This document shows, in pieces, positions 2,372 to 45,582 of a stretch of 64,000 nucleotides of DNA. A model generated the notes under the pieces. That model did no database searches. It saw only the letters and a program-made list of their open reading frames with translations, and was not told the DNA's origin. Both the position numbers and the translations under genes were made by a program. This DNA is from an uncultured Candidatus Rokubacteria bacterium (GTDB taxonomy: Bacteria > Methylomirabilota > Methylomirabilia > Rokubacteriales > CSP1-6): assembly GCA_963771355.1 (NCBI GenBank), contig CAVYTA010000008.1, positions 75,700 to 139,699 of the forward strand, written 5' to 3'. The stretch's first letter is position 1, and the number at the start of each line of letters is the position of its first letter.

Positions 2372-4444
2372 ATGTGGCGTCGCGGGGTCCTGGCGCTCGT
2401 CGTCCTCACGGTGACCTCGGTGGCCCTGGCCTCCCAGGGCGCGGCCCCTCTTCTGCCGGGACTCACGCAGGGTGATGTCATCGCCCTGGCGCTGGTCACC
2501 CAGCGCGGCGGCGATCTGACCACCGCCGCGCGGCTCTACGGCGAAGCCGCCGCCATGGCCGGCCCCATTCCCGAGTACGCGCTGCACCTCCAGGCCGATG
2601 CGCTCGCGCGGCTCCAGGATCCCGCGGCACCCCGCGTGGCGACCCTGGCGGTCGAGCAGGCCGGCTCGGGTCCGCTACTGCCCGCCGCGCTCCTGCTCGC
2701 CGCCCGGGAGTCCGCGCGGGTGGGCGACCAGGTCGGCGCCATCGGCTTCTACCGCCGCTTCCTGGACCGTTATCCCGAGCACGGAGACAGCCCGGCCGCG
2801 CGCTTCGGCCTGGCCGCCGCGCTCGAGTCCACCGGCGAAGGCGAGGAGGCGCTGCGGCTCTTCCGCGGCATCTGGATCACCGCGCCGCTCTCGTCGTTTG
2901 CCCCGGTGGCGCGCGACCGCGAACGCGACCTGACAGACCGCGGGGTGCCGGCGCCGTCCCTCACCCCGCGCGAGCGTGTCGATCGAGTGGAACGGCTCCT
3001 GGCTGGAGGCCAGGCCACCCAGGCCCGGATCGAGGCGGACGTGCTCGTCGCCGAGGGCATCAGCGGTGATCCGCTGCTCCGCGCCCTCCGCGTGGCCGCG
3101 GAGGCCTCGCGCCGGCTCGGCAAGTCCGACGAGGCGCTCCGCGCGGTGGATCGCGCGCTCCTCGTCGTGTCGGGCGAGCGCCGCGCCACCTGGCTTCTCG
3201 AGCGCGCGCGACTGCAGCAGGCCCGGAGCCCCCAGTCGGCCATCGTCACACTGGACCGGCTGGTGCGCGAGCATCCCAAGAGCAGCGAGGCGAGCGACGC
3301 CCTGCTTCTCCGCGCGCAGCTCCTGGAGGCGCAGGCCCAGCCGGTGGAGGCGGAGGCCACCTATGCGCGCCTGGCGGTGGGGTACGGGGACGACGACGAC
3401 GCGGGGCGCGCCCTCTGGCGTCTCGGGTGGCTGGCGTGGTTCCGGCGGGACTACGAGGGGGCCAAGGCCAAGTGGACCCAGCTCATGAATCTGCCCGGCG
3501 GCCAGGCCTTTCGCGACAACGCGATCTACTGGATCGGCCGGGCCCACGAGGAGCGCGGCGAGCTGGACCTGGCCACGCGCCAATGGACGGAGAGCGTCGG
3601 CCGAGAGCCGCGCGGGTACTTCGGCATCCTCGCCACCGCCCGGCTCCAGCGGCGCGGCGCCGCGGTGCCCATCGCGCGCGAGCTGAAAACGCCCATCACG
3701 CTGCCCGCGGACGTGCTGGAGCCCCTCCGCCAGGAGCCGCGCTACGCCAAGGCCACCGCGCTGCGCGCGGCCGGGCTCGGCGCCTGGGCGGACGGCGAGC
3801 TGGACGAGGTGGCGCGCCGCTCGGCCGGCGAGATGGCGCGCCTGTACGCGCTGTCCACCCTCTTCGCCCAGGACGCGCGCCACCACCTCTCGCTCCGCAT
3901 CCTCCGCCGCGAGTTTCTCCCGCTGGCGCGCGCGGGCTACGCGTGGCTCCCGCGCCCCTTCTGGGACATGTTCTATCCACTGGGCTGGCGCGCGGAGATC
4001 GCGAGCGCCGCGCTGAAGGGCGCGGTGGACCCGCTCCTGGTCTCGGCAGTAGTGCGCGAGGAGTCGTCCTACAACCCGCTCGTGCGCTCCCGTGTGGGCG
4101 CGCGCGGCCTCATGCAGCTCATGCCCGACACCGCGCGGCCGCTGGCCCGCGCGCGGGGCATGGATTTCCGGGACGGCGACCTCCTCGACGATCCCGCCGC
4201 CAACGTGGAGCTGGGCGCGGCCTATCTGGGCTGGCTCGTCCGCGAGTTCGGCGAGGCCCGGCTGGCGGTGGCCGCCTACAATGCCGGGCCTAACCGGGTG
4301 AAGGAGTGGTGGGCGGCGCGCAAGTCCGACGACCTCGAGGTGTGGGTGGAGCAGATCCCCTACAACGAGACGCGCAACTTCGTCCGGCGCGTGTCGGTGG
4401 GCTACGAGGAATACCGCCGCCTCTACGCGAGCCACGAGCAGTGA
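2372..4444 (+). CDS. slt: soluble lytic murein transglycosylase (Slt70-like, superhelical domain + SLT domain)
   Basis: N-terminal signal peptide, long alpha-superhelical region, C-terminal SLT catalytic motif (ESSYNPLVRSRVGARGLMQLMPDTA...AYNAGPNRV). Confidence 0.85.
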   Translation: MWRRGVLALVVLTVTSVALASQGAAPLLPGLTQGDVIALALVTQRGGDLTTAARLYGEAAAMAGPIPEYALHLQADALARLQDPAAPRVATLAVEQAGSGPLLPAALLLAARESARVGDQVGAIGFYRRFLDRYPEHGDSPAARFGLAAALESTGEGEEALRLFRGIWITAPLSSFAPVARDRERDLTDRGVPAPSLTPRERVDRVERLLAGGQATQARIEADVLVAEGISGDPLLRALRVAAEASRRLGKSDEALRAVDRALLVVSGERRATWLLERARLQQARSPQSAIVTLDRLVREHPKSSEASDALLLRAQLLEAQAQPVEAEATYARLAVGYGDDDDAGRALWRLGWLAWFRRDYEGAKAKWTQLMNLPGGQAFRDNAIYWIGRAHEERGELDLATRQWTESVGREPRGYFGILATARLQRRGAAVPIARELKTPITLPADVLEPLRQEPRYAKATALRAAGLGAWADGELDEVARRSAGEMARLYALSTLFAQDARHHLSLRILRREFLPLARAGYAWLPRPFWDMFYPLGWRAEIASAALKGAVDPLLVSAVVREESSYNPLVRSRVGARGLMQLMPDTARPLARARGMDFRDGDLLDDPAANVELGAAYLGWLVREFGEARLAVAAYNAGPNRVKEWWAARKSDDLEVWVEQIPYNETRNFVRRVSVGYEEYRRLYASHEQ

Positions 4445-4878
4445 CCGACCCGCGCGCGGGGCTCTTCCGGTGCCTCGCCGCCGGGCTCCTCGATGGCGCG
4501 CTCGGTGTCGTCCTCTGGAGCCTGGCCGCCATGTGGCTGGTGCTGGGCGTGTGGGCCGTGCGCGGGCTGCCGCGGGAGACGCCCACCCTGTTGCTGCTCT
4601 GCGCGGGCGTGCTCGGTCTCGGCGTGGGTCTCCACCTCATCTACAACGTGGTGGTGCTGGGCGGCTGCGGCCAGACGGTGGGTCGCATGGCGCTGGGGAT
4701 CGCGGTGGTGCGCCGCGACGGGGCACCCCCCGGCTATGCCCGCGCTCTGCTCCGTTCCCTGGGCAATCTCGTCACCGTCCTGACCCTGGGGCTGGCCGCC
4801 CTCGTCGCGCTCTTCAATCGTGAAGGACGAGATCTGGCCGACTTGCTCTCCGGGACCCGCGTCGTCCGGCGGCCTTGA
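4441..4878 (+). CDS. RDD family membrane protein
   Basis: In-frame GTG at 4441 overlaps the slt stop. RDD-type motif (VGRMALGIAVVRRDGAPPGYARALLR) with three hydrophobic helices. Confidence 0.55.
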   Translation: MTDPRAGLFRCLAAGLLDGALGVVLWSLAAMWLVLGVWAVRGLPRETPTLLLLCAGVLGLGVGLHLIYNVVVLGGCGQTVGRMALGIAVVRRDGAPPGYARALLRSLGNLVTVLTLGLAALVALFNREGRDLADLLSGTRVVRRP

Positions 4879-4988
4879 CGCGCGGCCGGGCGGCGAGAGT
4901 TGACAACCCGGTGACAGGCCCCCAGGGGTAGGCGCCCTGGTAGACTGGTGCCGTCGGTAGCAGCTCAAGCGACCAGGGAGGCTCGGGA

Positions 4989-12343: not shown

Positions 12344-12622
12344 TTACTTGCTGGGCTGGTAGTAGGGGTTGCTGCCCGAGGCGTGGTCGGTGGTGTCGAG
12401 GACTTCCTCGATCTCCGGGATCTCTTCCTTGATCAGCCGCTCGATGCCGGACTTGAGCGTCACGTCGGCGGCCCCGCAGCCCTGGCAGCCTCCGCCCATG
12501 GTGAGATACACCTTGTTGTCCTTGACGTCGATGAGATCCACGAAGCCTCCGTGGCCCGCCACCGCGGGATTGATCATCGAGTCGATCAGCTCCTGCACCT
12601 TGGTCTTGAGATCCTCGCTCAT
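12344..12622 (-). CDS. NifU-like (Nfu-type) Fe-S cluster scaffold domain protein, 92 aa
   Basis: Internal ATG at 12622 with GGAGG RBS. The long ORF to 13108 is an out-of-frame extension. Nfu C-terminal domain motif GGGCQGCGAADVTLKSGIE. Confidence 0.7.
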   Translation of the reverse strand: MSEDLKTKVQELIDSMINPAVAGHGGFVDLIDVKDNKVYLTMGGGCQGCGAADVTLKSGIERLIKEEIPEIEEVLDTTDHASGSNPYYQPSK

Positions 12623-12645: not shown

Positions 12646-14097
12646 CTAGATCACTACTGTACTCGAATATCCGGTAAGGGCCAACTGGCCCTTGGTGGGC
12701 TCCGCTCAGCAGAACCAGGGCTCGGTGAGGCGGGGCGGGCGTCGACGGTCGGGGGCCAGGCGCGGCGCCAGGGGTGCCGGGGCGGGGGTGCCCGCCGCCG
12801 TCGCGGCGAGGGCGCGCACACGGTCGAAGGTGACGGCGGAATCCTCGGCGCGCGGGGCCGATTCGGCGATGAGCGCCGCCACGCCGGCCTGGAGCGTCTC
12901 CATCCGCGGGTCCGGGTGCCGCCACGCGTAGGAGAAATCCGCCGCCACCAGCGCGCCCAGATACGGCCGCATGCCGGGGTGGTCCACCAGCCGCGAGCCG
13001 GGCGGCACCAGGAGCCGCAGCGAGTACTGCACCGGGTCCACGTGGTCCACGAGGTCGCGCGCCGCGACCCAGTCGAGCACCTCCACGAAGTCGCGGAGCG
13101 TCGTCCACGGCGTGAACGCCACCCAGGTGGGCCGCAGCGCGATGCCGGCCGCGCGAGTGGCGGCCAGCGCGACCTCCACGTCGGCACGCGTGTGCCCCTT
13201 GTCGAGATGCGCGAGCACGGTCTCGCTGAGGGACTCCACCGCAGACACCACGAAGAGGCAGCCGAGCGCGCCCAGCTCGGGCAGGTCGCCCGCGCGCCGG
13301 AGCAGGTGCTCGACTTTGGCGGTGAAGTCGAAGGTGACCCCGGGAAACTCACGGTGCAGGCGCCGGACGACCTCGAGGGCGTGGCCGGGACCGTTGAGGA
13401 AGTCGGGATCGCCGAAGGTGATATGCCCCGCGCCTGCCTCCACCTGTTGCGCCACGTCCTCCAGGACCACATCCGCGGGCACCACGAAGAAGCGGCCCCC
13501 ATAGACGGGCGGGATGGGGCAGTGGCGACAGAGGTGCTTGCAGCCGCGGCTGGCCTCGACGTAGCCCACGGGGATCTGGCGCCCGTCGTGCTCGAGCCGC
13601 GCATAGGTCTTGAGCGCGGGCAGCGCAGCGCGGCTGGGCCGCGGCAGCGTGGGCCGTGCGATGTGGGGGCCCGCGGGCTGGCCCACGCGGCGCACCCCGG
13701 GGAGGGGGCCCGCCCGGCCGGACTCGAGCGCTTCCACGAGTGCGGCCAGCGGCTCCTCCACCTCGCCGCCGATCACGCTGTCGGCGCCATGGGCGAGCAG
13801 GTGCTCGGCGTTGAGCGTGGCGTAGAGCCCGTAGAAGCACACGTGAACGCCGGGATTGAGCCGCCGCACCCGCTCCGCCACGGTGATGCCCACGCGCAGC
13901 GCGGTGTGCATGGGTACGGAGATGGCGACCAGGCGCGCGCGGCGCACCTTCTCGGCGTCGAGGGGTTCGACCGAGATGTCGAGGACGGCGGGGGCGAACC
14001 CGCGCTGCTCGAGCACCGCCGCCGGCCAGGCCACCGCCAGCGGCTGGTGGCCCAGCTCGTAGCAGGCGATCAGCAACACAGCCCCGTGATCTCTCAC
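12646..14097 (-). CDS. B12-binding-domain radical SAM selenoprotein, CUAEP-tail family (Sec at TGA 12706-12708)
   Basis: N-terminal Rossmann B12-binding-like domain. Radical SAM CKHLCRHC (Cx3Cx2C) cluster. ORF stops at TGA, but read-through gives ...EPWFC-U-AEPTKGQLALTGYSSTVVI-TAG. The C-U-A-E-P tail is the signature of the CUAEP/CCAEP-tail radical SAM (seleno)protein family. A hairpin lies 13-30 nt downstream of the TGA. Confidence 0.65.
12676..12693 (-). promoter_or_regulatory. candidate bacterial SECIS hairpin (AAGGGCC-AGUU-GGCCCUU) downstream of in-frame UGA
   Basis: Perfect 7-bp stem with 4-nt loop, beginning 13 nt 3' of the UGA codon on the mRNA. This is the position expected for a bacterial SECIS. 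Confidence 0.4.
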
Positions 14098-14121: not shown

Positions 14122-14415
14122 CTAGGAGTAACTCGGCTCGGCGGGCAGCGGCAGCGGCGCGCGCAGGCGCGGGAGCGCCTCGTTCAGCACACGCCCGAGG
14201 CCATCGGCGAGGACGTCCGCCAGCTGGCCACGCTCGCGCCGCAGGCTGTCGTTCTCGCTCTGCAGGGCGTCGAGCTCGCGCCGGAGCTCGTTGACCTCCT
14301 GGAGGAGCCGGTTCGAGGCGCGCTCGGTGGCCTCGAGCCGGGCGCACAGGCGGTCCTGCTCGGTGAGGAGCCGGGTGATGCGAATCCGGGCGTCGTGGAA
14401 GTCCAGGTCGTCCAT
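14122..14415 (-). CDS. hypothetical coiled-coil protein, 97 aa
   Basis: Internal ATG at 14415. Heptad-rich sequence (LQEVNELRRELDALQSENDSLRRERGQL). The upstream part of the listed ORF is non-coding in character. Confidence 0.45.
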   Translation of the reverse strand: MDDLDFHDARIRITRLLTEQDRLCARLEATERASNRLLQEVNELRRELDALQSENDSLRRERGQLADVLADGLGRVLNEALPRLRAPLPLPAEPSYS

Positions 14416-14500: not shown

Positions 14501-15706
14501 ATGGCCGCCCGCCCCGCCGCGCTCGCCTTCATCTTCGTCACCGTCGTGCTCGACATGCTCGCGCTCGGCGTGATCATTCCGGTGCTGCCGCGGCTGGTGG
14601 TCAGCTTCCTCGGTGGGGACACCGCCCGCGCGGCGGAGATCTACGGCGTCTTCGGCACCGTGTGGGCGCTGATGCAGTTCGTGTCTTCTCCGGTGCTCGG
14701 CGCGCTGTCGGATCGCTGGGGCCGGCGGCCCGTCATCCTGCTCTCCAATCTCGGGCTGGGTCTCGACTACGTGCTGATGGCGCTGGCGCCCACGCTCACC
14801 TGGCTCTTCGTGGGCCGGGTGATTTCCGGCGTCACCGCGGCCAGCGTCAGCATCGCGGGCGCCTATATCGCCGACGTCACCCCGCCCGAGCAGCGCGCGC
14901 GGGGGTTCGGCATGATCGGCGCCGCGTTCGGCGTCGGGTTCATCTTGGGTCCCGCGCTGGGCGGCGTGCTGGGGGTGGTGGATCCGCGGCTGCCCTTCTG
15001 GGTGGCGGCGGGCTTGAGCCTGCTCAACGCGCTCTACGGTTACTTCGTGCTGCCGGAGTCCTTGCCGCGGGAGCGGCGCGCGCCCCTTCGGTGGCGGCGC
15101 GCCAATCCGCTGGGGGCCCTCGGCCTCCTCGGCTCGCACCGGGAGCTCGGCGGCCTCGCCATTGTCCATTTCATCGGCCGGGTGGCGCACGAGGTGCTGC
15201 CGAGCGTCTTCGTCCTCTACGCGGGCTATCGCTACGGATGGGACGAGCGAGCCCTGGGGCTCTTTCTCGCCGCGGTGGGGCTGTCCACCATGATCGTCTC
15301 GGGACGCCTCGTGCACCCGATCGTCAGCCGGCTGGGCGAGCGCTGGGCGCTGCTCCTGGCCCTGGCCTGCGGCGCCGTCGGCTTCGCGATCTACGGGCTC
15401 GCGTCGGTGGGAGTGGTGGCCCTGCTCGCGGTGCCCATCCACGCGCTCTGGGGCCTGGGGAGCCCGGCCGCGCAGGGCCTGATGACCCGCCGCGTGCCGG
15501 CCTCGGAGCAGGGGCAGCTCCAGGGCGCGCTGTCGAGCCTGGGCGGGATCGCCGGGCTCATCGGCCCCGGCCTCTTCACGCTGACCTTCGCGTGGTTCCT
15601 CGGCGCGCGCGGCGGGATCGCCTTGCCCGGCGCGCCGCTCCTCCTCGCCGCGCTCCTGATGCTGGTCTCGCTCGCGGTCGCGTGGCGCGCAACTCGCGCG
15701 CGTTAG
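14501..15706 (+). CDS. MFS transporter (DHA1/TetA-like, 12 TMS)
   Basis: ATG at 14501. MFS signature motifs (GALSDRWGRRPV, GRVISG). Hydrophobic throughout. Confidence 0.8.
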   Translation: MAARPAALAFIFVTVVLDMLALGVIIPVLPRLVVSFLGGDTARAAEIYGVFGTVWALMQFVSSPVLGALSDRWGRRPVILLSNLGLGLDYVLMALAPTLTWLFVGRVISGVTAASVSIAGAYIADVTPPEQRARGFGMIGAAFGVGFILGPALGGVLGVVDPRLPFWVAAGLSLLNALYGYFVLPESLPRERRAPLRWRRANPLGALGLLGSHRELGGLAIVHFIGRVAHEVLPSVFVLYAGYRYGWDERALGLFLAAVGLSTMIVSGRLVHPIVSRLGERWALLLALACGAVGFAIYGLASVGVVALLAVPIHALWGLGSPAAQGLMTRRVPASEQGQLQGALSSLGGIAGLIGPGLFTLTFAWFLGARGGIALPGAPLLLAALLMLVSLAVAWRATRAR

Positions 15707-24644: not shown

Positions 24645-25018
24645 GCGCCGCCCGCCGGCCCGAGCAGGGCCTCGATCTTCTGGAGCAGGCGGGGAAGATC
24701 AACGGGCTTGGTGTCGAAGTCGTCGCAGCCTGCTGCCAGGGCCTTCTCCCGGTCGCCGGCCATGGCGTGCGCGGTGAGGGCGATCACGGGAATCGTCCGC
24801 GTCTCCGGCATGGCCTTCACCTGGCGGGTGGCTTCCCACCCGTCCATACCCGGCAGGCTCATGTCCATGAGGATGAGCGCCGGCGCCTCCGAGCGCGCCA
24901 TCGCCAGGCCCTGCTCGCCGTCGACGGCGATGGCCACCTCGTAGCCGCGCTTGACGAGGCGACGGGAGAGCATGTCGCGGTTCATCTCGTTGTCCTCGAC
25001 GAGCAGGATCTTGGCCAT
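24641..25018 (-). CDS. single-domain response regulator (CheY-like receiver), 125 aa
   Basis: [17 protein letters not shown]...LMDMSLPGMDGWE...TAHAMAGDREKALAAGCDDFDTKP. ATG overlaps the stop of the giant kinase gene (ATGA). Confidence 0.8.
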   Translation of the reverse strand: MAKILLVEDNEMNRDMLSRRLVKRGYEVAIAVDGEQGLAMARSEAPALILMDMSLPGMDGWEATRQVKAMPETRTIPVIALTAHAMAGDREKALAAGCDDFDTKPVDLPRLLQKIEALLGPAGGA

Positions 25019-28000
25019 CAGGCTTTCGGCCTTCGGCGCGCCACGCTGGCCGCCACCAGGTCGCGCACTTCGGCCAGCAGCTCGTCGCGGCCGTGGGTGC
25101 CCTTCTGGAGAATCTTCTGCACGTAGCCGTTGAGCCGCTCCCGGTCGTCGTGGGACAGGTCCTTGGCGGTGACGACGATGATGGGGATGGCCCGCCAGAG
25201 CTCGTGGCGGCGGAACTCGGCGACGAACTCGAAGCCGTCCATCTCCGGCATCATGAGGTCGAGGAGGACGACGCTGGGGGAGACATCGCGCAGGCGGTCG
25301 AGCGCCATCCGGCCGTTGGCCGCCTCCACCACCTCGAAGCCCTCGCTCTCGAGCATGCGCCGGAGCAGTGCGCGGGCGCCGGAGTCGTCGTCCACCACCA
25401 GGACGGGCCGGTCGCGCCGGTGCTGCTTCAGCACCGTCACCAGCCGTTCGCGATCGATCGGCTTGGTGAGGTAGTCGGAGGCGCCGAGGGCATAGCCCAG
25501 GTTCCGGTCGTCGACGATGGTCAGCATGACCACCGGGATGCCGGCCACGTCCGCGTCGGCCTTGAGGGCGGAGAGAACGGCCCAGCCGTCCATCCCCGGC
25601 ATCATGACGTCGAGGGTGATGGCGTCGGGCCGCAGCTCGCGGGCGCGGCGGAGCCCTTCCTCGCCGCCGGCGGCGGTGACGACGCGGAAGCCCTCCCGGG
25701 TTAGGAAACGCTGCATCAGGTCCCGCACCGCCGCCTCGTCGTCGATTACGAGCACGGTGCCGATGCCCGATGCCACGGGCTCGGCCGGCGCGGCGGGCGC
25801 GGCGGCTTCCCCGGCCGCCTCGGCGACCCGAGCGGGCAGCCGGATCGTGAAAGTGCTGCCGTGGTCCGCCTCGCTCTCGGCGGTGACGTCGCCACCCATC
25901 ATCCGGCAGAGCCGCCGGCTGAGCGCCAGGCCGAGGCCGGTGCCACCATACCGGCGCGAGGTGGCGGCATCGGCCTGGGTGAATGCCTCGAACAGCCTGG
26001 CGAGCTGCTCGGGCGTCATGCCAATGCCGGTGTCGCTGACCGCGAAGGCGAACCACTCCTGACCGTCCACCAAGTCGCGGCTTACCGCCAGCGTCACCGC
26101 CCCACGCTCGGTGAACTTGCAGGCGTTGCTCAGCAGATTGAACAGGGCCTGGCGCACCTTGGTCAGATCCGCGTGCATCGAGCCGATCGCGTCGGGGCAG
26201 CGCACCTCCAGGCGATTGTCGTTCCTGGCCGCCAGGGGCTGGATCACCGCCGCGATGTCCTGGACCAGGCGCGCCACGTCGAAGCTCTCGAGGTAGAGCT
26301 CCATCTTGCCGGCCTCGATCTTGGAGAGATCGAGCACGGCGTTGATGAGCTCCAGCAGGTGCTTGCCGGCCGCGTTGATCTTCTTGAGGTCGTCGGTGAA
26401 CTGCTCGGCCCCGAGATCGGCGGCGTCCTCCTGGAGCATCTCGCTGTAGCCGATGATGGCATTGAGCGGCGTACGCAGTTCGTGGGACATGTTGGCGAGG
26501 AACTCGGACTTGTGACGGTCGGCGGCCTCGAGCTGGCGGCTCTTGTCCCCGATCTCCCGGAAGAGGCGCGCGTTCTGGATGGCCACCGCCGACTGGGCGG
26601 CAAATGTCCTGAGCAGATCGATGACCTCCGAGGAGAACTCCCCGGGTGTCTTCTTGGAGACGGTGAGACCTCCGACCAGGTGATCCTCGCGCAACAGCGG
26701 AATGCCCAGGAGCGCCCGCGTTCCCGTCTGCAACAGGACATCTCGAAGGTGGCCGCTGTACGCCCCCGCCTCGGCAATGTCGGCAACCTGGACCGGCTCG
26801 AGCGTCACGGCCATGCGCCCGGCGACACCCTCGCCCCGTCGGATCGGCGCCCGCCGGGCCACGTCAACCACTTCCTCGGCGAGATTGTGGGTGGCACGGA
26901 ACAGGAGTTCCTCAGCCCGCTCGTCGTACTCGTAGACCGTGCACGAGTCGGTGCCGGCGAGCTGGTTGGCGCGGGAGACGATCGTGCTGAGCACGGTCTC
27001 GAGGTCGAGCGTCGAGCCGAGAGCCTGGCTGACCTCGCCCAGCGCCTTGAGCTCCTGGACCGACCGGGTGAGCTGGGCCGTGCGGGCTTGCAGCGCGTCG
27101 AGCAGCCGCGCGTTCTCGATGGCGATGGCCGCCTGGTCGGCGAAGGTTTCCATCAAGGCGATCTGATTGTCCATGAATGGCCGGACCTCGTGCCTGTGGA
27201 TCACGATGACCCCCAACAGCTCGTCCGCCCTGAGCATGGGGATCACCAGCACGGTCCGGTAAGGAGCAACCTGCTGCCCAGCGTAGGTGTACTCGGGATC
27301 GCTCCGGATATCGTGGATGTGGATGGTGCGCCGCTCAAGGGCCGCACGCCCGACGCCGCTCCCGCGTCCGGGCGCGATGGGATTCCGCTCGGTGAATGCT
27401 CTCAGCTCCGGGGAGACGTTGTGAGTGGCCACGACGCGCAGAACCTGACCGTCGAAGCGGAAGATCAATGCGCGTTCGGCCTCGCACAGCCTGATCGCGT
27501 TCTCGGCCAGCGTCTCGAAGACCGGCTGGAGATCGAAGGTGGACCGGCCGATCACCTTGAGCAGCTCGCTGGTCGCCGTCTGCTGCTCGAGCGCGACCCG
27601 CAGCTCGCCGTTTCGCTCCTCCAGTTCGGTGAACAGGCGGACGTTCTCGACGGCGATGACCGCCTGATCGGCAAAGGTCTGGAGGAGAGCAATCTGATTG
27701 TCGGAGAACGCCCGTGGCGTTTCCCATATGTGGACGTTTATTGTGCCGATGGGGGACCCGTCACGAAGCATCGGCACCGCCAGCACGCTGGCAAGGCCGG
27801 CACCTGCCACCGCACGCACGCTGTAGTCTCGATCCCCTCGGACGTCTGGAATATGAACCGGTCGGCCTGTCAGGATGGTCCGCCCGGACGCGCTTCCCAT
27901 GTGCGGCGCCATCGGGAATACGCTTCGCAGGGCCTCGGCCTGCTCAGGGGCCGTATTGTCGAGAGATTGCAGGTGCATTAATTCGCCGTCATACCTCACG

Positions 28001-31000
28001 ACCTGGGCGCTACCGGCCTCACACAGCCTGCGGGCATTGTGGGCGATCGTGTCGAAGACCGGCTGGACGTTGGTCGGCGAGCTCGAGATCACGCGGAGAA
28101 TCTCGCTCGTCGCCGTCTGCTGCTCGAGCGCCTCGGTGAGGTCTGCGTTCTTGGTCTGCAGCTCGGTGAGCAGCCGCGCATTCTCGATGGCGATGGCGGC
28201 CTGGTCGGCGAAGGTCTCCATCAGGGCGATGTGGCCGTCTGTGAACCGCCGGACCTCGTGCCGGTAGATGACGATCACTCCGAGCAGCTCCTCGGCTCTC
28301 AACATGGGGATCGCGAGCAACGTTCTGACAGGGTCCGCCACGTGCACCGCGTAGGTGACTTCCGAGTCGGCCAGCACGTCATGGATGTGGACTGTGCGCT
28401 TCTCGAGAGCAGCGCGAGCCGTGCCGCTATGGCGGCCGGGAGCAATAGGATTGCGCTCGATGAATGATTGCAACTCGGGGGAGACATTATAGAAGGCCGC
28501 GGCTCGCAGGAGCTGAGCGTCGAAACGGAAGATGACCGCCCGCTCGGCTTCGCACAGCCGGACCGCGTTCTCGGCCAGCGTCTCGAAGACCGGCTGGAGC
28601 TCGAACGTGGACCGCCCGATCACCTTGAGCAGCTCGCTGGTCGCCGTCTGTTGCTCGAGGGACACGCGGAGCTCGCTGTTGCGCCCCTCCAGCTCGGTGA
28701 ACAGGCGCACGTTCTCGATGGCGATCACCGCCTGGTCGGCGAAGGTCTGCAGCAGCCCGATCTGCTTGTCCGAGAATGGCGCCACGTGATCCCGGGCAAC
28801 GAGGATAGTCCCGATGGGCACGTTGTCGCGAAGCATCGGGACTGCGAGAGCGCTTCGATAGCCGGTCGTTGTTGCGATCGGAAGCGTATATTCGGGATCC
28901 TCAAGCACGTCTGGCACCTGGACGACGTTACGGGTCAAGATCGCCCGTCCGCTCACGCTCCCCCGGCTCGGAGGCAGCGGGTATGTCCGCCCCAGCGCAT
29001 CCAATCGCTCCGCGCTGAGGTTGTGGTGCGCCACGAGATGCATGAGCCGCCCGTCAAACTGAATGACGAGACCATTGACTGCCCCCGAGAGTTGCGTGGC
29101 GCTCGCGGCGATCGCTTCGAAGGTCGGGCGGACGTCGGTCGGGGAGCTGCTGATGACGCGCAGGATCTCGCTGGTCGCCGTCTGCTGCTCGAGCGCCTCG
29201 GTGAGGTCGGCGTTCTTGGCCTGGAGCTCGGTGAGCAGCCGCGCGTTCTCGATGGCGATGGCCGCCTGGTCGGCGAAGGTCTCCATCAGGGCGATCTGAC
29301 CGTCCGTGAAGGGCTGGACCTCGAGTCTGTAGATCGTGATCACGCCCAGGAGCTCATCCGCTCGGAGCATTGGTATCGCAAGCATGGTTCGAGTGGGATC
29401 AATCGTCTGCGCCCCGTAAGTGTATTCGGGATCGGCCTGGATGTCGTGAACGTGCGTGGTGCGCCGATCGAGTGCAGCGCGACCCGTGGTGCTTCCGCGT
29501 CCGAGGGGAATAGGATTCCTCTCGATGAAGCTCTTGAGATTGGGGGACACGTTGTGGGCGGTCACGACTCGCAAGACCTGACCGTCGAAGCGGAAGACCA
29601 AAGCTCGCTCGGCAGCGCACAACCGGACCGCGTTCTCGGCCAGGGTTTCGAAGACGGGCTGGAGATCGAAGGTGGAGCGGCCGATCACCTTGAGGAGCTC
29701 GCTCGTCGCGGTCTGCTGCTCGAGGGCGACGCGCAGCTCGGAGTTCCGCGCCTCCAGCTCGGTGAACAGGCGGACGTTCTCGATGGCGATGACGGCCTGG
29801 TCGGCGAAGGTCTTCAGCATCTCGATGTGGGCGGTAGCGAACCGTCCGGGTGCGCTGCGCTGGACAACGATGGTGCCGATCGGACTGCTATCCGCCCGGA
29901 GCATCGGCACGGCAAGCAGGCTTCGCCCGGCTGCCAGGTTGACCTGATATTCCGAGTCCTCCATCACGTCCGGGATTTCGGCGATGGCACACGTGAGAAT
30001 CGCCCGCCCCGAGGCTTGTGAGTGGCTCGGACGCATCGGGTACGCTCGCCGCAGACCTTCCAGCACGTCTGGCGTCACGTCGTGTGCCACGACGTGAAGC
30101 TGCTCGCCGTCGAACCGATGCAAGACGCCGAAGCTCGCCCCGCACAGCTGCACCGCGTTCCGGACGATGGCATCGAACACCGGCTGGACGTCGGTCGGGG
30201 AACTGCTGATGACCCGCAGGATCTCGCTCGTCGCTGTCTGCTGCTCCAGGGCCTCGGTGAGGTCGGCGTTCTTGGCCTGCAGCTCGGTGAGCAGCCGCGC
30301 GTTCTCGATGGCGATGGCGGCCTGGTCGGCGAAGGTCTCTAGCAGGGCGATCTGGCTGTCGGTGAACGGTCGGACCTCGTGTCTGTAGATCAAGATCACG
30401 CCCAGCAACTCGTCCGCCCTGAGCATGGGGACCGTGAGTATGGTTCGAAACGGGTCCACCTGCCGCGAGCCGTAGGTGTACTCGGGGTCGGTCTGGACAT
30501 CATGGATGTGGACGGTGCGCCGCTCGAGGGCGGCGCGCGCCGCGGCGCTGCTCCTTCCGGGCGCAATGGGATTCTGCTCGATGAAGGCTCTGATCTCGGC
30601 GGAAGCATTGTGAGTGGCTACAACGCGCAGGAGCTGACCGTCGAAGCGGAAGATGAACGATCGTTCTGAGTCGCACAGTCTCACCGCGTTCTCGGCCAGC
30701 GTCTCGAAGACCGGCTGGAGGTCGAAGGTGGAGCGCCCGATCACCTTGAGCAGCTCGCTGGTGGCCGTCTGCTGTTCGAGAGCGACGCGGAGCTCACTGT
30801 TGCGTGCCCCGAGCTCGGTGAAGAGGCGCACGTTCTCAATGGCGATGACCGCCTGATCGGCAAACGTCTTGAGCAGCTCGATCTGCTTGTCGCTGAAGGG
30901 GCGGACCTCCGTCCTGCGGATCAGAAGGCTGCCGATCGCCACCCCTTCGCGCACCAGAGGCGTCGCGAGTGTCGTGTGATGTCCTGCGGCTCTGGCCAGC

Positions 31001-32494
31001 GCCCGGCCTTCCGCGAACTCGGCTTCATCCGCCTCAGCGAGATTGTGAACATGGATCGGCTGCCGGTCGATGATCGCCCGGCCCATGACCGAGCCGCGGG
31101 TGAGCGGGAACGTCCGGCCCAAGACGCTGGCGATCGGTCCGTAATGGGCTGCGATCCGACCCGTCTGGCCTTCCACGAGCACGAGCACCGCATCGAAAGC
31201 CGCACATACTCGGGCTGCGTTCTCGGCGACGGTATCCAGCACGGGCTGAAGGTCAGTCGGTGAGCCCGCGATCACGCGCAGGATCTCGCTCGTCGCCGTC
31301 TGCTGCTCCAGGGCCTCGGTGAGGTCGGCGTTCTTGGCTTGGAGCTCGGTGAGCAGCCGCGCGTTCTCGATGGCGATGGCCGCCTGGTCGGCGAAGGTCT
31401 CCATGAGAGCGATCTGACCGTCGGTGAACGGCCGCACCACATGCCGGTAGATGAAGATCACTCCGAGCAGCTCATCCGCGCGCATTATGGGGATCCCGAG
31501 CGCGGTGCGAATGGGGATTGTGTCGGCCTGTGCGAGCCTGATAGGTGTGCTCTGGGTCGGCCTGGACATCCGGAATGTGGATCGTGCGTCGCTCGAGGGC
31601 GGCGCGCCCGGTGGCGCTGTTGCGCCCGGGGAAATGGGATTGCCCTCGAGGAACGCCCGGCGTCCGGCGGAGACATTGTGCGTGGCCACGAGACGGAGCA
31701 GCTGACCGTCGAAGCGGAAGATGGCGGCGCGTTCGGCCTCGCACAGCCTGACCGCATTCTCGGCCAGCGTGTCGAAGACCGGCTGGAGGTCGAAGGTGGA
31801 CCGCCCGATCACCTTGAGCAGCTCGCTGGTCGCCGTCTGCTGCTCGAGGGCGACGCGGAGCTCGCGGTTGCGTGCGTCCAGCTCGGTGAACAGGCGCACG
31901 TTCTCGATAGCGATCACGGCCTGGTCGGCGAAGGTCTGGAGCAGCGCAACCTGCCGGTCGGTGAAGGGCAGGGCCTCGGTGCGGCGGAGCTGGATCACGC
32001 CGATGGCAGCGCCATTCTTCAGCAAGGGAACACTCAGCAGCGTCCGGTGGCCGAACCGTTGCGCGTAGCGACTCCCCTCCGGGAACTCACCGATCTCGGC
32101 CTGCACGTCGGCAATGTGGATGGTCCGCGCCTCCAGCACACTCCGACCGGCGATGGTGCCTCGGGCGAGGGCCAGAGTGAACTCGCCGACCGGGTCTACG
32201 GCGATCGGCCCATGATGGGCGACGAGGAGGAGTCGGTCGCCTCGCGAGCCGGAAGATGGTGGAATCCTGGGCCTCGCAGAGGCGGCCCGCGCTGGCCGTC
32301 ACGGCGTCGAGTACCGGCTGGATGTCAATCGGCGAGCTGCTGATGATCCGGAGGATCTCGGCGGTGGCCGTCTGCTGCTCGAGGGCCTCGGCAAGCTTCG
32401 CCGCGAGCCCGTCGCTTCTCGCGCGCTCCTGCTCGAGCGCCTTGCGCAGCGCCTCGACTTCGAGGGCGAGATCAACCTTGGGCGCCGGCGCCAT
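25018..32494 (-). CDS. giant hybrid sensor histidine kinase: N-terminal coiled coil, about 12 tandem GAF domains, HisKA, HATPase_c, two receiver domains (~2,490 aa). A +1/-1 frameshift near 32245 splits it into ORFs 32087-32497 and 25018-32139
   Basis: GAF domains joined by conserved linkers alternating [34 protein letters not shown] and [33 protein letters not shown]. His[20 protein letters not shown], HATPase_c, then REC x2. The frame upstream of the listed start still encodes GAF sequence ([33 protein letters not shown]), and the 136-aa upstream ORF carries the same repeat unit. Confidence 0.8.
26500..32100. repeat. about five tandem copies of a ~1.07-kb DNA repeat (one di-GAF unit each) inside the giant kinase gene; linker segments about 90-95% identical over 100-200 nt
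   Basis: Near-identical plus-strand segments recur with 1,060-1,080 bp period at about 27541, 28601, 29681, 30721 and 31801 (type 1 linker) and about 28081, 29161, 30221 and 31281 (type 2 linker). Confidence 0.6.
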
Positions 32495-34555: not shown

Positions 34556-35436
34556 GCGGGGGTGGCATCGGGGTCGTGCGCGCCCATCTCGCCAAGATTC
34601 CCCCGGCGAACACCGTGGCGGAGCGGCGGGCGCAGTACGACCGGGCCGAACGGGTCTTTCCCTTGCCGACCGATGTCAGCGTCAAGCCGGTGCACGTGCC
34701 GGCCATCCCCGCGGAGTGGATCGAGCCGTCGGCCGCGCGCGAGGGCGCCTTCGTGCTCTATCTCCACGGCGGCGGCTACGTGATCGGCTCGCCGAGGTCG
34801 CACCGTCACCTGGCCGCCTCCATCGCGGTGGCCGCGCGCGCCTCCGTGCTGCTCCCCGACTACCGGCTCGCGCCCGAGCACCCGTTCCCGGCCGCGCTCG
34901 AGGACGCGGTGGCGGCGTATCGCTGGCTGCTCGATCGCGGCACCGCCCCGCGCCGCATCGTCATCGCGGGCGACTCCGCGGGAGGCGGCCTCACCGTGGC
35001 CACGCTCGTCGCGCTGCGCGAGCGCGGGGTGCCGCTGCCCGCCGCCGGCGTCTGCATCTCGCCGTGGGTGGACCTCACCGGGAGCGGGGCCTCCTATGCC
35101 ACCAAGGCCGCCTCCGATCCCATCGTGACCCGCGACGGCGTGATGGAGATGGCGCGCGCGTACCTGGGCGCCACCGACGCCCGGACCCCGCTGGCCTCCC
35201 CGCTCTTCGCCGACCTCACCGGGCTCCCGCCGCTCTTCATACAGGTTGGCACCGAGGAAGTCTTGCTGGACGACGCGATGGAGCTGGCCGAGCGCGCCAA
35301 GGCGGCAGGGGTGGAGGCCACGCTGGAGCTGTGGCCGGAGATGGTCCACGTCTGGCAGTGGTTCTTCCCCATGCTCGACGAAGGCCGCACCGCCATCGAC
35401 GGCATCGGCGCCTTCGTGCAGGCGAAGACGGCGTGA
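34552..35436 (+). CDS. alpha/beta-hydrolase fold-3 esterase/lipase (HGGG ... GDSAGG)
   Basis: Oxyanion-hole motif LHGGGY and nucleophile elbow GDSAGG. GTG start overlaps the upstream stop. Confidence 0.75.
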   Translation: MSGGGIGVVRAHLAKIPPANTVAERRAQYDRAERVFPLPTDVSVKPVHVPAIPAEWIEPSAAREGAFVLYLHGGGYVIGSPRSHRHLAASIAVAARASVLLPDYRLAPEHPFPAALEDAVAAYRWLLDRGTAPRRIVIAGDSAGGGLTVATLVALRERGVPLPAAGVCISPWVDLTGSGASYATKAASDPIVTRDGVMEMARAYLGATDARTPLASPLFADLTGLPPLFIQVGTEEVLLDDAMELAERAKAAGVEATLELWPEMVHVWQWFFPMLDEGRTAIDGIGAFVQAKTA

Positions 35437-36459: not shown

Positions 36460-37638
36460 ATGGTCTCGATCCGCCTCATCGCGCTGGTGGCGAGCTTCGC
36501 CGTCCTGCTGGCGGGGGCCCGCCCCGCGCCCGCCCAGCAGACGCTGCGCGTCGGGGCCTCGCTCTCCCTCACCGGCACCTACGCCAAGCCCGGCCTCTAC
36601 AGCCGCGAGGGCTATGCGCTCTGCCAGAAGCACCTCAACGAGGGGGCGGGGGTGCTGGGGCGGCCCATCGAGTTCGTGATCTACGACGACCGGTCCGATC
36701 CGCAGACCGGCGTACGCCTCTACGAGAAGCTCATCACCGAGGACCGCGTGGAGGCCGTGCTGGGGCCTTACTCCTCCGCCATCACCGAGGCCGTCGCCAA
36801 TGTCGCCGAGAAGTACAAGAAGCTCCTGCTCGCGCCGCTGGGCTCCGCCGGCAGCATCTGGGAGAAGGGCCGGCGCTACGTGATCATGATGGTGTCACCG
36901 GCGGAGTCGTACATGGAGGGGCTGCTCGACCTCGCCGCGAAGAACGGGCTCAAGACGGTCGCCTTCATCTACGAGGACACGCTCTTTCCCAAGACCTCGG
37001 TGCGGGGGGCGATGGCGAGCGCCCGCAAGCGCGGGCTCGAGGTCGTGTTCCTGGAGGCCTATCCCAAGGCGCAGACCGACTTCGCCGCGCTCCTCACCAA
37101 GATCAGGGCCGTCCGCCCCGACGTGCTCGCCGCCGCCACCTACTTCGACGACGTGGTGGCCATCACCCGCCAGATGAAGGATCTGGACGTCAACGTGAAG
37201 ATGTTCGGCACCACCGTGGGCGGCGATCTGCCGGAGTTCTACAAGGCGCTGGGCCGCACCGGCGAGTACGTCTACGGCGCGTCCCAGTGGGAGCCGAGCC
37301 TCACGTATCCCGGCGCCCATGAGTTCGCCGCCACCTACGAGGCGGAGTTCAGCCGGCCCCCGTCCTATCACGCGGCCGCCGCCTATGCCGCCTGCTTGCT
37401 GCTGGCCGAGGCCATCAACCGCACCGGCAGCCTCGATCCCGAGCGCCTGCGCGACTACCTCTTCAAGCTCCGGACCACCACTGTCTTCGGCGGCTTCGAC
37501 GTGGACGAGCGCGGCTATCAGGTCGGCCATCGCATGGTGACCATCCAGTGGCAGGAGGGCCGTCAGGTGGTGGTATGGCCGGAGGACGTCGCCACCGGCA
37601 GGATTCGCTTCCCCACCCCTCCCTGGAGCCAGCGATGA
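36460..37638 (+). CDS. ABC transporter substrate-binding protein, LivK/type-I periplasmic binding fold, with no cognate permease or ATPase genes nearby
   Basis: Signal peptide MVSIRLIALVASFAVLLAGARPAPAQQ, then LRVGASLSLTGTYA... typical of Leu/Ile/Val-binding family proteins. Confidence 0.75.
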   Translation: MVSIRLIALVASFAVLLAGARPAPAQQTLRVGASLSLTGTYAKPGLYSREGYALCQKHLNEGAGVLGRPIEFVIYDDRSDPQTGVRLYEKLITEDRVEAVLGPYSSAITEAVANVAEKYKKLLLAPLGSAGSIWEKGRRYVIMMVSPAESYMEGLLDLAAKNGLKTVAFIYEDTLFPKTSVRGAMASARKRGLEVVFLEAYPKAQTDFAALLTKIRAVRPDVLAAATYFDDVVAITRQMKDLDVNVKMFGTTVGGDLPEFYKALGRTGEYVYGASQWEPSLTYPGAHEFAATYEAEFSRPPSYHAAAAYAACLLLAEAINRTGSLDPERLRDYLFKLRTTTVFGGFDVDERGYQVGHRMVTIQWQEGRQVVVWPEDVATGRIRFPTPPWSQR

Positions 37639-39674
37639 TCCAGACCATCCGTACCGCCTGCGCCCACGATTGCCCCGACCAGTGCTCGCTCATCGCCACC
37701 GTCGAGGACGGGCGCCTGCTGAAGCTCCAGGGGGACCCCGATCATCCGATGACGGCCGGCTTCGCCTGCGCCAAGGTGAACCGCGAGCACGAGAGCGTGC
37801 ATTCCCCGGAGCGCGTGCTCACGCCGCTGCGCCGCACGGGGCGGAAGGGCGAGGGCCACTTCGCGCCGGTGACGTGGGAGGAGGCGCTGGCGGAGATCGT
37901 CGAGCGGTGGACGCGCATCGCGGCGGAAGACGGCCCGCTGGGGCTGCTCGGCTATGCCTATAGCGCGCACCAGGGCCAGCTCAACCGCGGGCTCCTGCTG
38001 GGGCTCTTCCACGCGCTCGGGAGCACGCGGCTCATCGCGGGCACCGTGTGCGACTCCTGCGCCGAGGCGGGCTGGGACGCCGCGGTCGGGAGCATCGGCG
38101 GCAGCGATCCCGAGAGCGTGGTGGAGTCGGACCTGATCGTCTCCTGGGGCGCGGACCTGCTCACCACCAATCTCCACCTCTGGCCCCTGGTGGAGCAGGC
38201 GCGTGCCAGGGGCGCGAAGCTCGTCGTCATCGAGCCGCGGCGCAGCGCCACCGCCGCGCGGGCCGACTGGCACCTGCGCGTCAACGTGGGCTCGGACGCC
38301 GCGCTCGCGCTGGGCGTGATGCACGTGCTCGCGCGCGAGGGCCTCTGCGACCGCGACTACCTCGCGCGCGAGACGCTGGGCTTCGAGCGGCTGGAGCGCG
38401 ACGTGCTGCCGCGCTTCACCCCCGCGCGCGTGGCCGAGATCACCGGCGTCTCCGTGGCGGACCTCGAGCGCCTGGCGCGGATGTACGGCGGCGCGCGGGC
38501 GCCCTTCATCCGGCTGGGCGAGGGGATGTCGCGCACGCTGCAGGGCGGCCAGGCCATCCGCGCGGTGGCGCTCTTGCCCGGCGTGGTGGGCGCCTATGCC
38601 AAGCGCGGCGGCGGCGCCCTCCTCATGACGGCGACGGGGTTCGGCGTCGACTCGAGCGCCCTCCGCAAGCCCTCCGGTCCCGCGGCCACGCGCACCGTGA
38701 ACCACTCGCGGCTCGGCGAGGCGCTGCTCACGTTCAAGGACCCGCCCATCCGCGCGCTCTTCGTGGCCGCCAACAATCCCGCGGTGACCTGTCCCGACTC
38801 GGCGGCGGTGCGGCGGGGGCTCGCCCGCGAGGACCTCTTCACCGTGGTCCACGACCCCTTCCTCTCGGACACCGCGCGCTACGCCGATCTGGTGCTGCCC
38901 GCGGCGACCCACTACGAGAGCGAGGACGTCGTGCGCGCCTACGGGACCTACTACCTGCAGTTCGTCGCGCAGGTCGTGCCGCCGCAGGGGGAGGCCTGGT
39001 CGAATTGGCGGCTGGCCCAGGAGCTGGCGCGGCGCCTCGGCGTGAAGGACCCGGTCTTTTCCATGGACACGGACGGGCTCATCCGCGCCCTGTTCCGCAA
39101 TGCCAGGGGGCCGGCGGCCACCCTGGATCCGGCGGCCGTGCGCACGGCGGGGCCCATCCGCGTGACCGATCCGATCGCGGTGGGAGCCGGGCGTCCCTTC
39201 GGCACGCCGTCGGGGAAGCTCGAGTTCTACTCGGAGACGCTCGCCGCCCAGGGGCTGCCCGCCTTGCCGGACTGGCAGCCCGATCCCGACGCGGCCGAGC
39301 GAGGCCGGCGCTGGCCGCTGCGGCTCCTCACCGCGCCCGGGTATTTTCAGGCGCACACGGCCTACGCGGGCGTGGCCTCGCTGCGGAAGAAGGCGGGCCC
39401 GCCCGAGTGCGTGCTCCATCCCGACGACGCGGCGGCGCGGGGCCTCCACGCGGGCCAGCCGGTGGAGCTCTACAATGACCGCGGCGCGGTGACCCTCGTG
39501 CTGCGGGTGAGCGACGAGACCTCGCCCGGCGTGGCCTTCGTGCCCGGCCAGCGGCCGGTGGGCGAGGCCCTGGCCGGCACGATCAATATGCTGTGCTCCA
39601 CGGAGTACAGCGACATGGGCGACGGCGCGACCTACCAGAGCACGCGGCTCGAGGCACGCGCCCCGCGGGCCTGA
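37635..39674 (+). CDS. molybdopterin-dependent oxidoreductase (MopB superfamily, BisC/FdhA-like) with N-terminal 4Fe-4S Cys motif
   Basis: CAHDCPDQCS Fe-S motif near the N-terminus, molybdopterin-binding and C-terminal MopB-CT-like regions. ATG overlaps the upstream stop (ATGA). Confidence 0.75.
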   Translation: MIQTIRTACAHDCPDQCSLIATVEDGRLLKLQGDPDHPMTAGFACAKVNREHESVHSPERVLTPLRRTGRKGEGHFAPVTWEEALAEIVERWTRIAAEDGPLGLLGYAYSAHQGQLNRGLLLGLFHALGSTRLIAGTVCDSCAEAGWDAAVGSIGGSDPESVVESDLIVSWGADLLTTNLHLWPLVEQARARGAKLVVIEPRRSATAARADWHLRVNVGSDAALALGVMHVLAREGLCDRDYLARETLGFERLERDVLPRFTPARVAEITGVSVADLERLARMYGGARAPFIRLGEGMSRTLQGGQAIRAVALLPGVVGAYAKRGGGALLMTATGFGVDSSALRKPSGPAATRTVNHSRLGEALLTFKDPPIRALFVAANNPAVTCPDSAAVRRGLAREDLFTVVHDPFLSDTARYADLVLPAATHYESEDVVRAYGTYYLQFVAQVVPPQGEAWSNWRLAQELARRLGVKDPVFSMDTDGLIRALFRNARGPAATLDPAAVRTAGPIRVTDPIAVGAGRPFGTPSGKLEFYSETLAAQGLPALPDWQPDPDAAERGRRWPLRLLTAPGYFQAHTAYAGVASLRKKAGPPECVLHPDDAAARGLHAGQPVELYNDRGAVTLVLRVSDETSPGVAFVPGQRPVGEALAGTINMLCSTEYSDMGDGATYQSTRLEARAPRA

Positions 39675-41890: not shown

Positions 41891-42720
41891 ATAGAGCGTC
41901 GATATTCGGAGGGTAAGCCCGAGCGGCTCCCCGACTTCGCCGACCGAGCGGTTGGCCTCAAGGTTGACGTCATCGTGGTCGACGCCTGCGGCGCATCGCT
42001 CAATGCCGCCAGTCAAGCTATCAGCGCGATCCCCATCGTCGTCGCTGCGTGTAAGATGACCTCGTTGCGGCGGGGCTTATCTCCAGCCTCGCCGACCGGG
42101 AGGTAACATCACCGGGCTGTCAGAGCTCACTCCGGAGCTCGGGGCCAAACGTCTGAGTTGCTGAAAGAGGCCGTCCCAGGATGAAACGCGTGGCCGTTCT
42201 ATGGAATACGACCTATTCGGAGCGGCTCAGTGCGCAACTTCCGCTTCTGGTCATCCGATTGGGTAGCGATGCGAGGCGGCAGTCCCAGGCGTTGGGCATC
42301 GACGCTGCAATCGGTAGAGATCCGTGGTCCCGACGATTTCGATACCGCGTTCTCAGCCATGACCAAAGAGCGAGCGGACGCGATGATTGCATTCTCGGAG
42401 CCCCATCGATCGTCCTTCATCGGAAAACGCATCGCGGATCTCGCGGCGAAGATCCGCCGGCCGGCAATGTATGCATCCCGAGAGGTGGCGGAGGCGGGAG
42501 GACTGATGTTCTACGGGCCGAGCAACGCTGACATGTTCCGGCGGGCCGGTGTTTATGTAGGCAAGATCTTGAAAGGGGCCAAGCCCGCAGATCTCCCCGA
42601 TGGAGCAACCCACGAAGTTCGAGCTGGTGATCAACCTCAAGGCCGCGAAGGCGCTCGGCACTCGCGATCCCGCAGTCGATCCTTCGCCGAGCGGACGAGG
42701 TGATCCGAGTGAAGGAGATG
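41695..42720 (+). pseudogene. degenerate ABC transporter substrate-binding protein of the PF04392 ('ABC transporter substrate binding protein') family; in-frame stops and at least 3 frameshifts
   Basis: Three-frame reading recovers ...GLHEVNYVEGRNI*IERRYSEGKPERLPDFADRAVGLKVDVIVV...IPIVVAA..., ...LQSVEIRGPDDFDTAFSAMTKERADAMIAFSEP...RIADLAAKIRRPAMYASREVAEAGGLMFYGPSNADMFRRAGVYVGKILKGAKPADLP..., then EQPTKFELVINLKAAKALG. These are canonical motifs of this family. Confidence 0.6.
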
Positions 42721-42727
42721 TGTCGCG

Positions 42728-45295: not shown

Positions 45296-45582
45296 CCCTT
45301 CAGGAGTCCTTCTCTCGCCTCCTTCCTCCAGCGCGAGAGCATGAAGGGGTGGATGTCCATCGTTTCCTCGGCCCGATCGCTCTGCCCATCCGACACCTCC
45401 CAGCGTTAGCCAGAAGTGTCTACTTTATCGAGGGAGATTCAACGGTCGGCTGCATGCGTTGTTAGGCGGCATCCTGCGTTGCCGCTCCTCTAGTAGACGC
45501 TAACGTGATTGTGGTTTTTGCCGGCCTACGCCCGGCCACTCCCAATCAACATTTCGGCGCTCATCACAAGTCGTCCCTCGGA

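Follow-up and report, generated by a model that had tools for sequence, protein, structure and literature searches.

ArsL, the nearest characterised relative of the protein considered here, splits S-adenosylmethionine (SAM) to methylthioadenosine and a 3-amino-3-carboxypropyl (ACP) species and forms the C-As bond of hydroxyarsinothricin on the arsinothricin route; its C-terminal RCCLKC tail binds As(III) and is required for the product and its C-As bond, but is dispensable for SAM cleavage (bioRxiv 10.1101/2024.02.01.577332; 10.64898/2026.04.29.721666). Another family of radical SAM proteins is curated in NCBIfam as NF040546, "CUAEP/CCAEP-tail radical SAM (seleno)protein", where U stands for selenocysteine (Sec), and has been cited in a single sentence as an uncharacterised selenoprotein with a CU motif (Haft & Gwadz, bioRxiv 10.1101/2022.07.06.499078). 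Here we analysed a 64-kb stretch of DNA from an uncultured Candidatus Rokubacteria bacterium (contig CAVYTA010000008.1; hereafter the window), which carries on its minus strand a radical SAM gene (12646-14097) with an in-frame UGA near its 3' end. We are highly confident that this gene is a member of NF040546 and, jointly with that identity, that its UGA is recoded to Sec. The family, its alternation between Sec and Cys, and its name are already curated, and homologues from the same phylum already carry that name, so that the find is correct but already known.

The open reading frame (ORF) at 12706-14097 starts with GTG at 14097 and runs through 463 sense codons ending in ...L-T-E-P-W-F-C, the last of which is the Cys463 codon (12711-12709), immediately before the UGA at 12708-12706; a GTG at 14079, matching the calls of 457 amino acids (aa) found in databases, is a possible alternative start. 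Translated through the UGA, the full coding sequence (CDS, 12646-14097) gives a product of 483 aa: 463 sense codons, the UGA read as Sec464, 19 sense codons (12649-12705) encoding the tail AEPTKGQLALTGYSSTVVI, and a TAG at 12648-12646. An earlier note on this DNA, made from the letters alone, had described a gene interrupted by TGA at 12706-12708 whose read-through gives a C-U-A-E-P tail up to a TAG at 12646, and the sequence agrees with this, except that the note counted 20 further codons after the TGA where there are 19 sense codons (20 is reached by including the TGA or the stop). Its assignment of the protein to the CUAEP/CCAEP-tail family was borne out as well: with U entered as C, the read-through protein scores 701.4 bits against NF040546, an equivalog model with a cutoff of 500, and the alignment runs end to end (residues 7-473 on profile positions 1-467 of 468), well past the Sec, so that the extended tail is matched too. 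Both Pfam domains that the note had named for checking, PF04055 and PF02310, also score above their cutoffs. No defining feature separates the protein from the family, which it resembles in its three-part architecture, in the C-[U/C]-A-E-P-T-x-x-Q tail and in the Sec/Cys alternation. The best database homologues belong to Methylomirabilota / Candidatus Rokubacteria, and two of them already bear the family name from NCBI (P0020, 81% identity; P0081, 70%). Almost all of the 120 best are 453-472 aa long and cover 94-96% of the query, from which it follows that gene callers cut them at the UGA, as the note had held of standard gene callers.

The reading of the UGA as Sec is carried by comparison with other genomes. 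A profile-free search of 1.84 billion cluster representatives returned 525 relatives at E < 1e-30, many of them ending in ...E-[PSA]-W-[FY]-C and others running on as C-C-A-E-P-T-x-x-Q-[LF]. A scan of one genome per species found at least 592 matching genomes, and the best 80 loci, kept for comparison, span about ten phyla (Rokubacteria/Methylomirabilota, Planctomycetota, Nitrospirota, Gemmatimonadales, Acidobacteriota, Chloroflexota, Poribacteria, Myxococcota and others). Of the 79 orthologous loci, 61 have TGA at the aligned position (the window and L001 counted) and 18 have TGC or TGT; one Cys-form locus reads CCVEP. The C-terminal motif C-[U/C]-A-E-P, which in the window reads ...EPWF-C463-U464-A-E-P-T-K-G-Q-L, is common to the 78 loci whose tails were compared, and AEPTxxQ[L/F] is conserved across the whole family, alike after TGA and after a Cys codon. 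Among Rokubacteria the distal part of the tail is conserved as well, as LAL-[TS]-G-x-S-G-T-V-x-[IV] (LALTGYSSTVVI), a lineage-specific extension by which the window copy differs from other members of NF040546. An in-frame peptide conserved across about ten phyla would not be expected behind a stop, and the comparative evidence that the UGA at 12708-12706 is recoded to Sec is strong. The alignment of orthologues that the earlier note had proposed thus shows the same downstream peptide behind 61 TGA and 18 Cys codons, and the orthologues do not all end at this codon.

Within the coding sequence of the tail lies a hairpin (12676-12693, minus strand) composed of a 5' arm AAGGGCC (12693-12687), a loop AGUU (12686-12683) and a 3' arm GGCCCUU (12682-12676), which form a perfect 7-bp stem; the 18-mer has a minimum free energy (MFE) of -11.7 kcal/mol. 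The hairpin starts at the 13th nucleotide after the UGA, leaving 12 nt between them, and 19 nt separate the UGA from the loop. By itself it is unremarkable in DNA of 68% G+C: the fold of its 76-nt context has a z-score of -1.05, a stability matched by 33 of 200 shuffles. Its significance therefore has to be judged across loci. The 60 further TGA loci have a best stem of 5-9 bp within 10-40 nt of the codon, and in about 56 of them it stands at the same place with a loop AGUU, AGUUN or GUU, whereas the 17 Cys loci tested lack the hairpin, their best stems being scattered and just 3-5 bp long. The mean MFE of nucleotides 13-37 is -10.9 kcal/mol for the Sec loci versus -3.3 kcal/mol for the Cys loci (Mann-Whitney p = 1.3e-9). 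The stem also varies in a compensatory way: counted from the loop, pair two is C-G (45 loci), U-A (12) or G-C (3), and pair three is G-C (38), A-U (17) or C-G (2). In the codon-registered alignment, cells in which both sides of a pair have changed number 66, versus 28.5 +/- 4.6 in shuffles, and the covariation score is 0.420 versus 0.226 +/- 0.016, with none of 500 shuffles as high in either case and every slid control lower. With both registers of pairing allowed, 6.28 of 7 stem positions are paired, versus 3.94 in the Cys loci and 5.35 +/- 0.09 after permutation of the 3' arms among loci. The constraints published for the bacterial SECIS, or selenocysteine insertion sequence (bSECIS; PMC13188914, Fig. 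2 legend), accommodate the window hairpin in its 7-bp stem, its 4-nt loop with G at position 2 followed by U, its spacing of 19 nt and its MFE below -7.5. The earlier note had reported a perfect hairpin with a 7-bp stem and a 4-nt loop, 13 nt downstream of the UGA, and had called it SECIS-like; it is present where the note placed it, and because it fits the bSECIS constraints, covaries and is specific to TGA loci, we interpret it, on these sequence comparisons, as a SelB-type SECIS within the next 30 nt of coding sequence.

An observation on the same alignment (UGA +1 to +46, 61 loci) is that the SECIS stem has two alternative pairing registers with respect to the reading frame, with a loop AGUU in 20 loci, the window included, and AGUUN or GUU in 38. 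The structure is kept while its phase against the codons moves by one nucleotide.

Several results weigh against Sec use, and they would favour a simpler account in which the TGA at 12708-12706 is a true stop, the protein has 463 aa, and the hairpin is there by chance or is terminator-like in a 60-nt spacer before the downstream nifU gene. Considered as a single sequence, the hairpin folds no better than shuffles, as noted above, and the 19 tail codons have a lower G+C content at third positions (GC3) than the body of the gene. No Sec machinery was found within the 64-kb window: ARAGORN detected no tRNA-Sec there (the only tRNA is a tRNA-Ser(GGA) at 35295-35381), tblastn with E. coli SelA, SelB and SelD queries gave no homologue, and Rfam at gathering thresholds gave no SECIS or tRNA-Sec family match over the whole window. 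A scan of the window for other TGA-interrupted ORFs of high GC3 produced no second selenoprotein candidate, and thus no proof of Sec use from within it. Among the comparison loci, ARAGORN detected no tRNA-Sec in 60, and tblastn of 81 loci with the same queries gave one SelD-like match, in L025; this is a single case beside a Cys-form gene, and nothing is drawn from it. Even so, the true-stop account is highly improbable and is already contradicted by the comparative data, as far as sequences can tell: the peptide after the TGA is conserved across about ten phyla in the same pattern as after the Cys codons of 18 orthologues, the hairpin shows covariation and occurs specifically at TGA loci, the curated hidden Markov model (HMM) runs through the tail, and no run of T follows the hairpin. 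If the UGA is recoded, the Sec machinery must lie elsewhere in the genome than in the 64-kb window. For the phylum, the literature gives indirect support: Methylomirabilota are described as rich in selenoproteins, a metagenome-assembled genome (MAG) having been reported to carry as many as 63 predicted selenoprotein genes, and reports of [NiFeSe] hydrogenases of the Sec type exist for the phylum too.

The SelD-like gene of L025, a Blastocatellia MAG, lies at 3995-4912 on the minus strand, is 37% identical to E. coli SelD, and adjoins genes for an ATP-grasp protein, the Cys-form radical SAM protein, Nfu and an Atg22-type transporter of the major facilitator superfamily (MFS). No other sel gene was seen in the vicinity of the 80 loci.

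Outside its own family, the protein finds its second-best NCBIfam match in ArsL (NF040542, RCCLKC-tail), with 317.3 bits over residues 7-403 only. ArsL is the only radical SAM enzyme of canonical fold known to yield an ACP species and a carbon-metalloid bond. A profile-profile comparison (hhalign) of 52 members of the CUAEP family with four true ArsL sequences gave a probability of 100, an E value of 7e-90 and 36% identity over 398 columns; the alignment spans the N-domain, the barrel and the C-domain and stops at a shared W-x-H-P-D-P just before the tails, which differ. By this profile comparison the core of the CUAEP family appears to be the sister of ArsL. The two share a homologous catalytic core (N-domain and CxxxCxxC barrel), and in both the C-terminus is a Cys-rich tail carrying a vicinal pair, which is CC in ArsL and CC or CU in the CUAEP family. 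They differ in that the CUAEP tail, WFC-U-AEPT, follows a linker about 50 residues longer, whereas the ArsL tail is FKRCCLKC.

The architecture is inferred to consist of an N-terminal Rossmann domain, a CxxxCxxC [4Fe-4S]/SAM barrel, a C-terminal domain, an Ala/Pro-rich linker and the conserved tail. The N-terminal Rossmann-type "B12-binding" domain (residues 8-121; 13735-14076, minus strand) matches PF02310 with 44.5 bits (cutoff 32.1), and PF04055 (Radical_SAM) matches residues 181-320 with 39.5 bits. The cluster motif C186-x3-C190-x2-C193 (GCKHLCRHCP; 13519-13542, minus strand) falls in invariant columns and is encoded by the Cys codons TGC (13542-13540), TGT (13530-13528) and TGC (13521-13519). 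Besides these three, the only invariant chalcogen positions of the family alignment are Cys463 and Sec/Cys464, at the end of the Ala/Pro-rich linker. An AlphaFold2 (AF2) model was made for a Cys-form homologue (P0125; 54% identical, 620 bits against NF040546), with a predicted local distance difference test score (pLDDT) of 94.8 overall, 67 in the linker and 86-89 in the conserved tail; the recovery of confidence in the tail after a linker of low confidence suggests that, in the model, the tail docks on the core. The best fold neighbour of this model is AprD4 (PDB 6fd2), followed by TsrM, OxsB, MgmA and MiaB, with TokK and CysS also among the neighbours. AprD4, TsrM and OxsB resemble the family model in combining a Rossmann N-domain with a radical SAM barrel (TM-score 0.6-0.67), but their identity is only 13-19% and none of them has a Cys-Sec tail. 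Searched by sequence, the solved structures contain no close relative and no ArsL structure.

The neighbourhoods of the gene were compared by clustering the ORFs within 7 kb of it across the loci. In the window, a gene for a NifU/NfuA-type Fe-S carrier of 92 aa (12344-12622, minus strand; PF01106, 83 bits, matching the C-terminal half of NfuA) starts 23 nt downstream of the TAG with its own ribosome-binding site, AAGGAGG, and is likely a co-transcribed partner of the radical SAM gene. A NifU/Nfu gene stands directly downstream on the same strand in 23 of the 69 loci with enough flank, in several phyla. Other recurrent neighbours are an ATP-grasp protein of the L-amino-acid-ligase type (31 of 80 loci; domains ATP-grasp_4 and LAL_C2, weakly similar to BacD and DdaF), YggX, for Fe2+ trafficking, just upstream (19 loci), DUF169 (12 loci) and a formyltransferase (11 Chloroflexota loci). 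About 40% of the NF040546 loci have an ATP-grasp, DUF169 or YggX neighbour, whereas the window copy has NifU only. Three fusions were also found: P0145 joins a CCAEP radical SAM protein to a helix-turn-helix (HTH) and a MerB (alkylmercury lyase) domain, P0259 joins an L-amino-acid-ligase-type ATP-grasp protein to a radical SAM protein with a CCAAPTS tail, and P0254, on the ArsL branch, joins GNAT, a methyltransferase and ArsL with an RCCLRC tail. The link to the ligase fits an amino-acid product, as ACP transfer would give, and the links to NifU and YggX fit an Fe-S enzyme that needs supply or repair of its cluster; neither identifies the substrate. The MerB fusion is rare and only a weak clue.

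Upstream of the radical SAM gene, a small coiled-coil ORF (14122-14412, minus strand) is directly adjacent and is conserved in three loci including the window, and beyond it a divergent MFS transporter gene (14528-15598, plus strand) is conserved in L001 alone. As they are conserved only in the closest relatives, both were discounted as partners.

What the tail may do is suggested by its counterpart in ArsL. Because the core is the probable sister of ArsL, whose Cys tail holds As(III), we tentatively propose that the Cys-Sec pair might be a substrate-carrying arm that presents a thiophilic atom to SAM-derived chemistry. With the UGA recoded, as the comparison shows, translation runs on for 19 codons to the TAG at 12648-12646, giving a product with a C-terminal ...PRLTEPWF-C-U-AEPTKGQL... 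arm. On this proposal, the vicinal Cys-Sec pair on its tethered tail would act as the ArsL tail does towards As(III): it would capture a thiophilic substrate, be it a metalloid, a metal or a chalcogen, and offer the bound atom to carbon chemistry derived from SAM at the cluster. As a ligand, Sec would be stronger and more nucleophilic than Cys, and the adjacent NifU might supply or repair the Fe-S cluster. A narrower version, in which an ACP transfer of the ArsL type is made onto another thiophilic atom held by the Cys-Sec arm (e.g. Sb, Se, Te, Hg or a different As species), is rather doubtful. A number of results speak against carrying the ArsL mechanism over. The protein falls below the ArsL cutoff of 450 bits, whereas a true ArsL (P0216) scores 516, and its WFCUAEPT tail lacks the As(III)-binding motif RCC[L/I][K/R]C, while ArsL-type matches end in FKRCCLKC, FKRCCIKC or FKRCCLRC. 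The CUAEP family offers two chalcogen ligands, one of them Sec, where ArsL has three Cys; unlike in ArsL, there is no arsM or arsQ near the CUAEP gene; MerB adjoins the gene in none of the 80 loci; and neither ATP-grasp, DUF169 nor YggX occurs in the 64-kb window, where NifU is the sole conserved partner. A literature search for CUAEP, CCAEP and NF040546 gave nothing beyond the one sentence of Haft & Gwadz and no biochemical data for any family member, in line with the earlier note, which had called the roles of the enzyme and of its Sec tail not established.

The main rival to the substrate-carrying arm is one in which Cys and Sec form a redox-active selenenylsulfide on a mobile C-terminal arm, so that a radical intermediate formed on an organic substrate would be resolved by electrons or a hydrogen atom from this arm. 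Both kinds of arm have precedents: in mammalian thioredoxin reductase the GCUG tail, a vicinal Cys-Sec pair on a flexible C-terminal extension, shuttles electrons to and from a buried site, and in MerA a vicinal Cys-Cys pair on such an extension shuttles a metal ion to and from a buried site. These two are flavoprotein disulfide reductases of unrelated fold without radical SAM chemistry, so the likeness is functional only. A redox role would suit a vicinal Cys-Sec pair at the end of a flexible linker with a tail predicted to be ordered, the presence of only two invariant chalcogen ligands outside the cluster motif, and the housekeeping-like context, in which NifU or YggX are neighbours and resistance genes are absent. 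It is possible, though questionable, given that the equivalent tail of the nearest characterised relative binds substrate and is dispensable for SAM cleavage, that heavy-metal handling has been connected with the CU motifs of other curated selenoproteins of bacteria, and that a MerB fusion exists. The tail might instead be the enzyme's own substrate, either as a fused peptide akin to a ribosomally synthesised and post-translationally modified peptide (RiPP) or through an auto-modified residue, e.g. Sec or Cys alkylated by a SAM-derived fragment. Towards the electrophilic Fe-ACP species that has been proposed for ArsL, a selenolate would indeed be an excellent nucleophile, and the tail motif is conserved over about 20 residues, beyond the CU pair; this is nevertheless very unlikely, since no protease or exporter is conserved among the neighbours, stoichiometric self-modification of a 483-aa enzyme would be wasteful, and no precedent is known for ArsL. 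There is also the question of cobalamin. The earlier note had called the enzyme B12-binding and class B, labels that derive from the Pfam domain name only, and a cobalamin-dependent class B methyltransferase with the CU tail as an accessory (binding, for example, the substrate for methylation) would agree with the PF02310 match above cutoff, with weak matches to the models of HpnR, PhpK and the methyl-coenzyme M reductase (MCR) glutamine methyltransferase, and with TsrM, OxsB, TokK and CysS among the fold neighbours. However, the protein falls far short of the cutoff of every class B family model (52 vs 650, 30 vs 600, and so on), the text of the paper on the in vitro reconstitution of ArsL, a much stronger relative, has no mention of cobalamin or B12, and the top fold neighbour, AprD4, is a diol dehydratase, whose N-domain is not known to bind cobalamin. 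The class B scores and the ArsL paper make cobalamin-dependent methyl transfer the less likely chemistry, and we regard it as unlikely.

Elsewhere in the window, a minus-strand ORF at 25018-32298 encodes a hybrid of sensor histidine kinase and response regulator of 2427 aa with at least five near-identical GAF-pair modules, in which a motif recurs. The ORF at 37323-39674 (plus strand) looks, by its translation alone, like one of the molybdopterin-oxidoreductase type, with an N-terminal Cys cluster CAHDCPDQC, and no in-frame TGA suggesting a Sec form was seen in it. On the same strand, the ORF at 42713-43567 looks like an amino-acid substrate-binding protein of an ATP-binding cassette (ABC) system, and 44095-44436 is an approximately 85%-identical copy of its last 110 or so residues, which appears to be a duplicated gene fragment. 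The segment at about 45400-49600 has a G+C content of 0.59-0.63, compared with a window mean of 0.68, and few long ORFs; it contains, by their look, split fragments resembling a methyltransferase and a phosphoenolpyruvate (PEP) mutase/isocitrate lyase, and may be a decaying or foreign segment.

For annotation, the CDS should run on to 12646 and codon 464 should be given as Sec, and the same concerns the family at large, as nearly every database copy ends at the UGA, including copies that NCBI already names by the family HMM. If an ACP transfer onto an atom held by the Cys-Sec arm took place, the result would be a new amino acid of the organo-metal(loid) or organo-chalcogen kind, which would be built into a dipeptide in the approximately 40% of lineages with an adjacent ATP-grasp gene, whereas the organism of the window would have the first step and the Fe-S carrier only. 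The interest thus lies in the family rather than in this locus: it is widespread and mostly Sec-containing, and comparison ties it to ArsL, an L-amino-acid ligase and NifU/YggX, with MerB as a rare further link.

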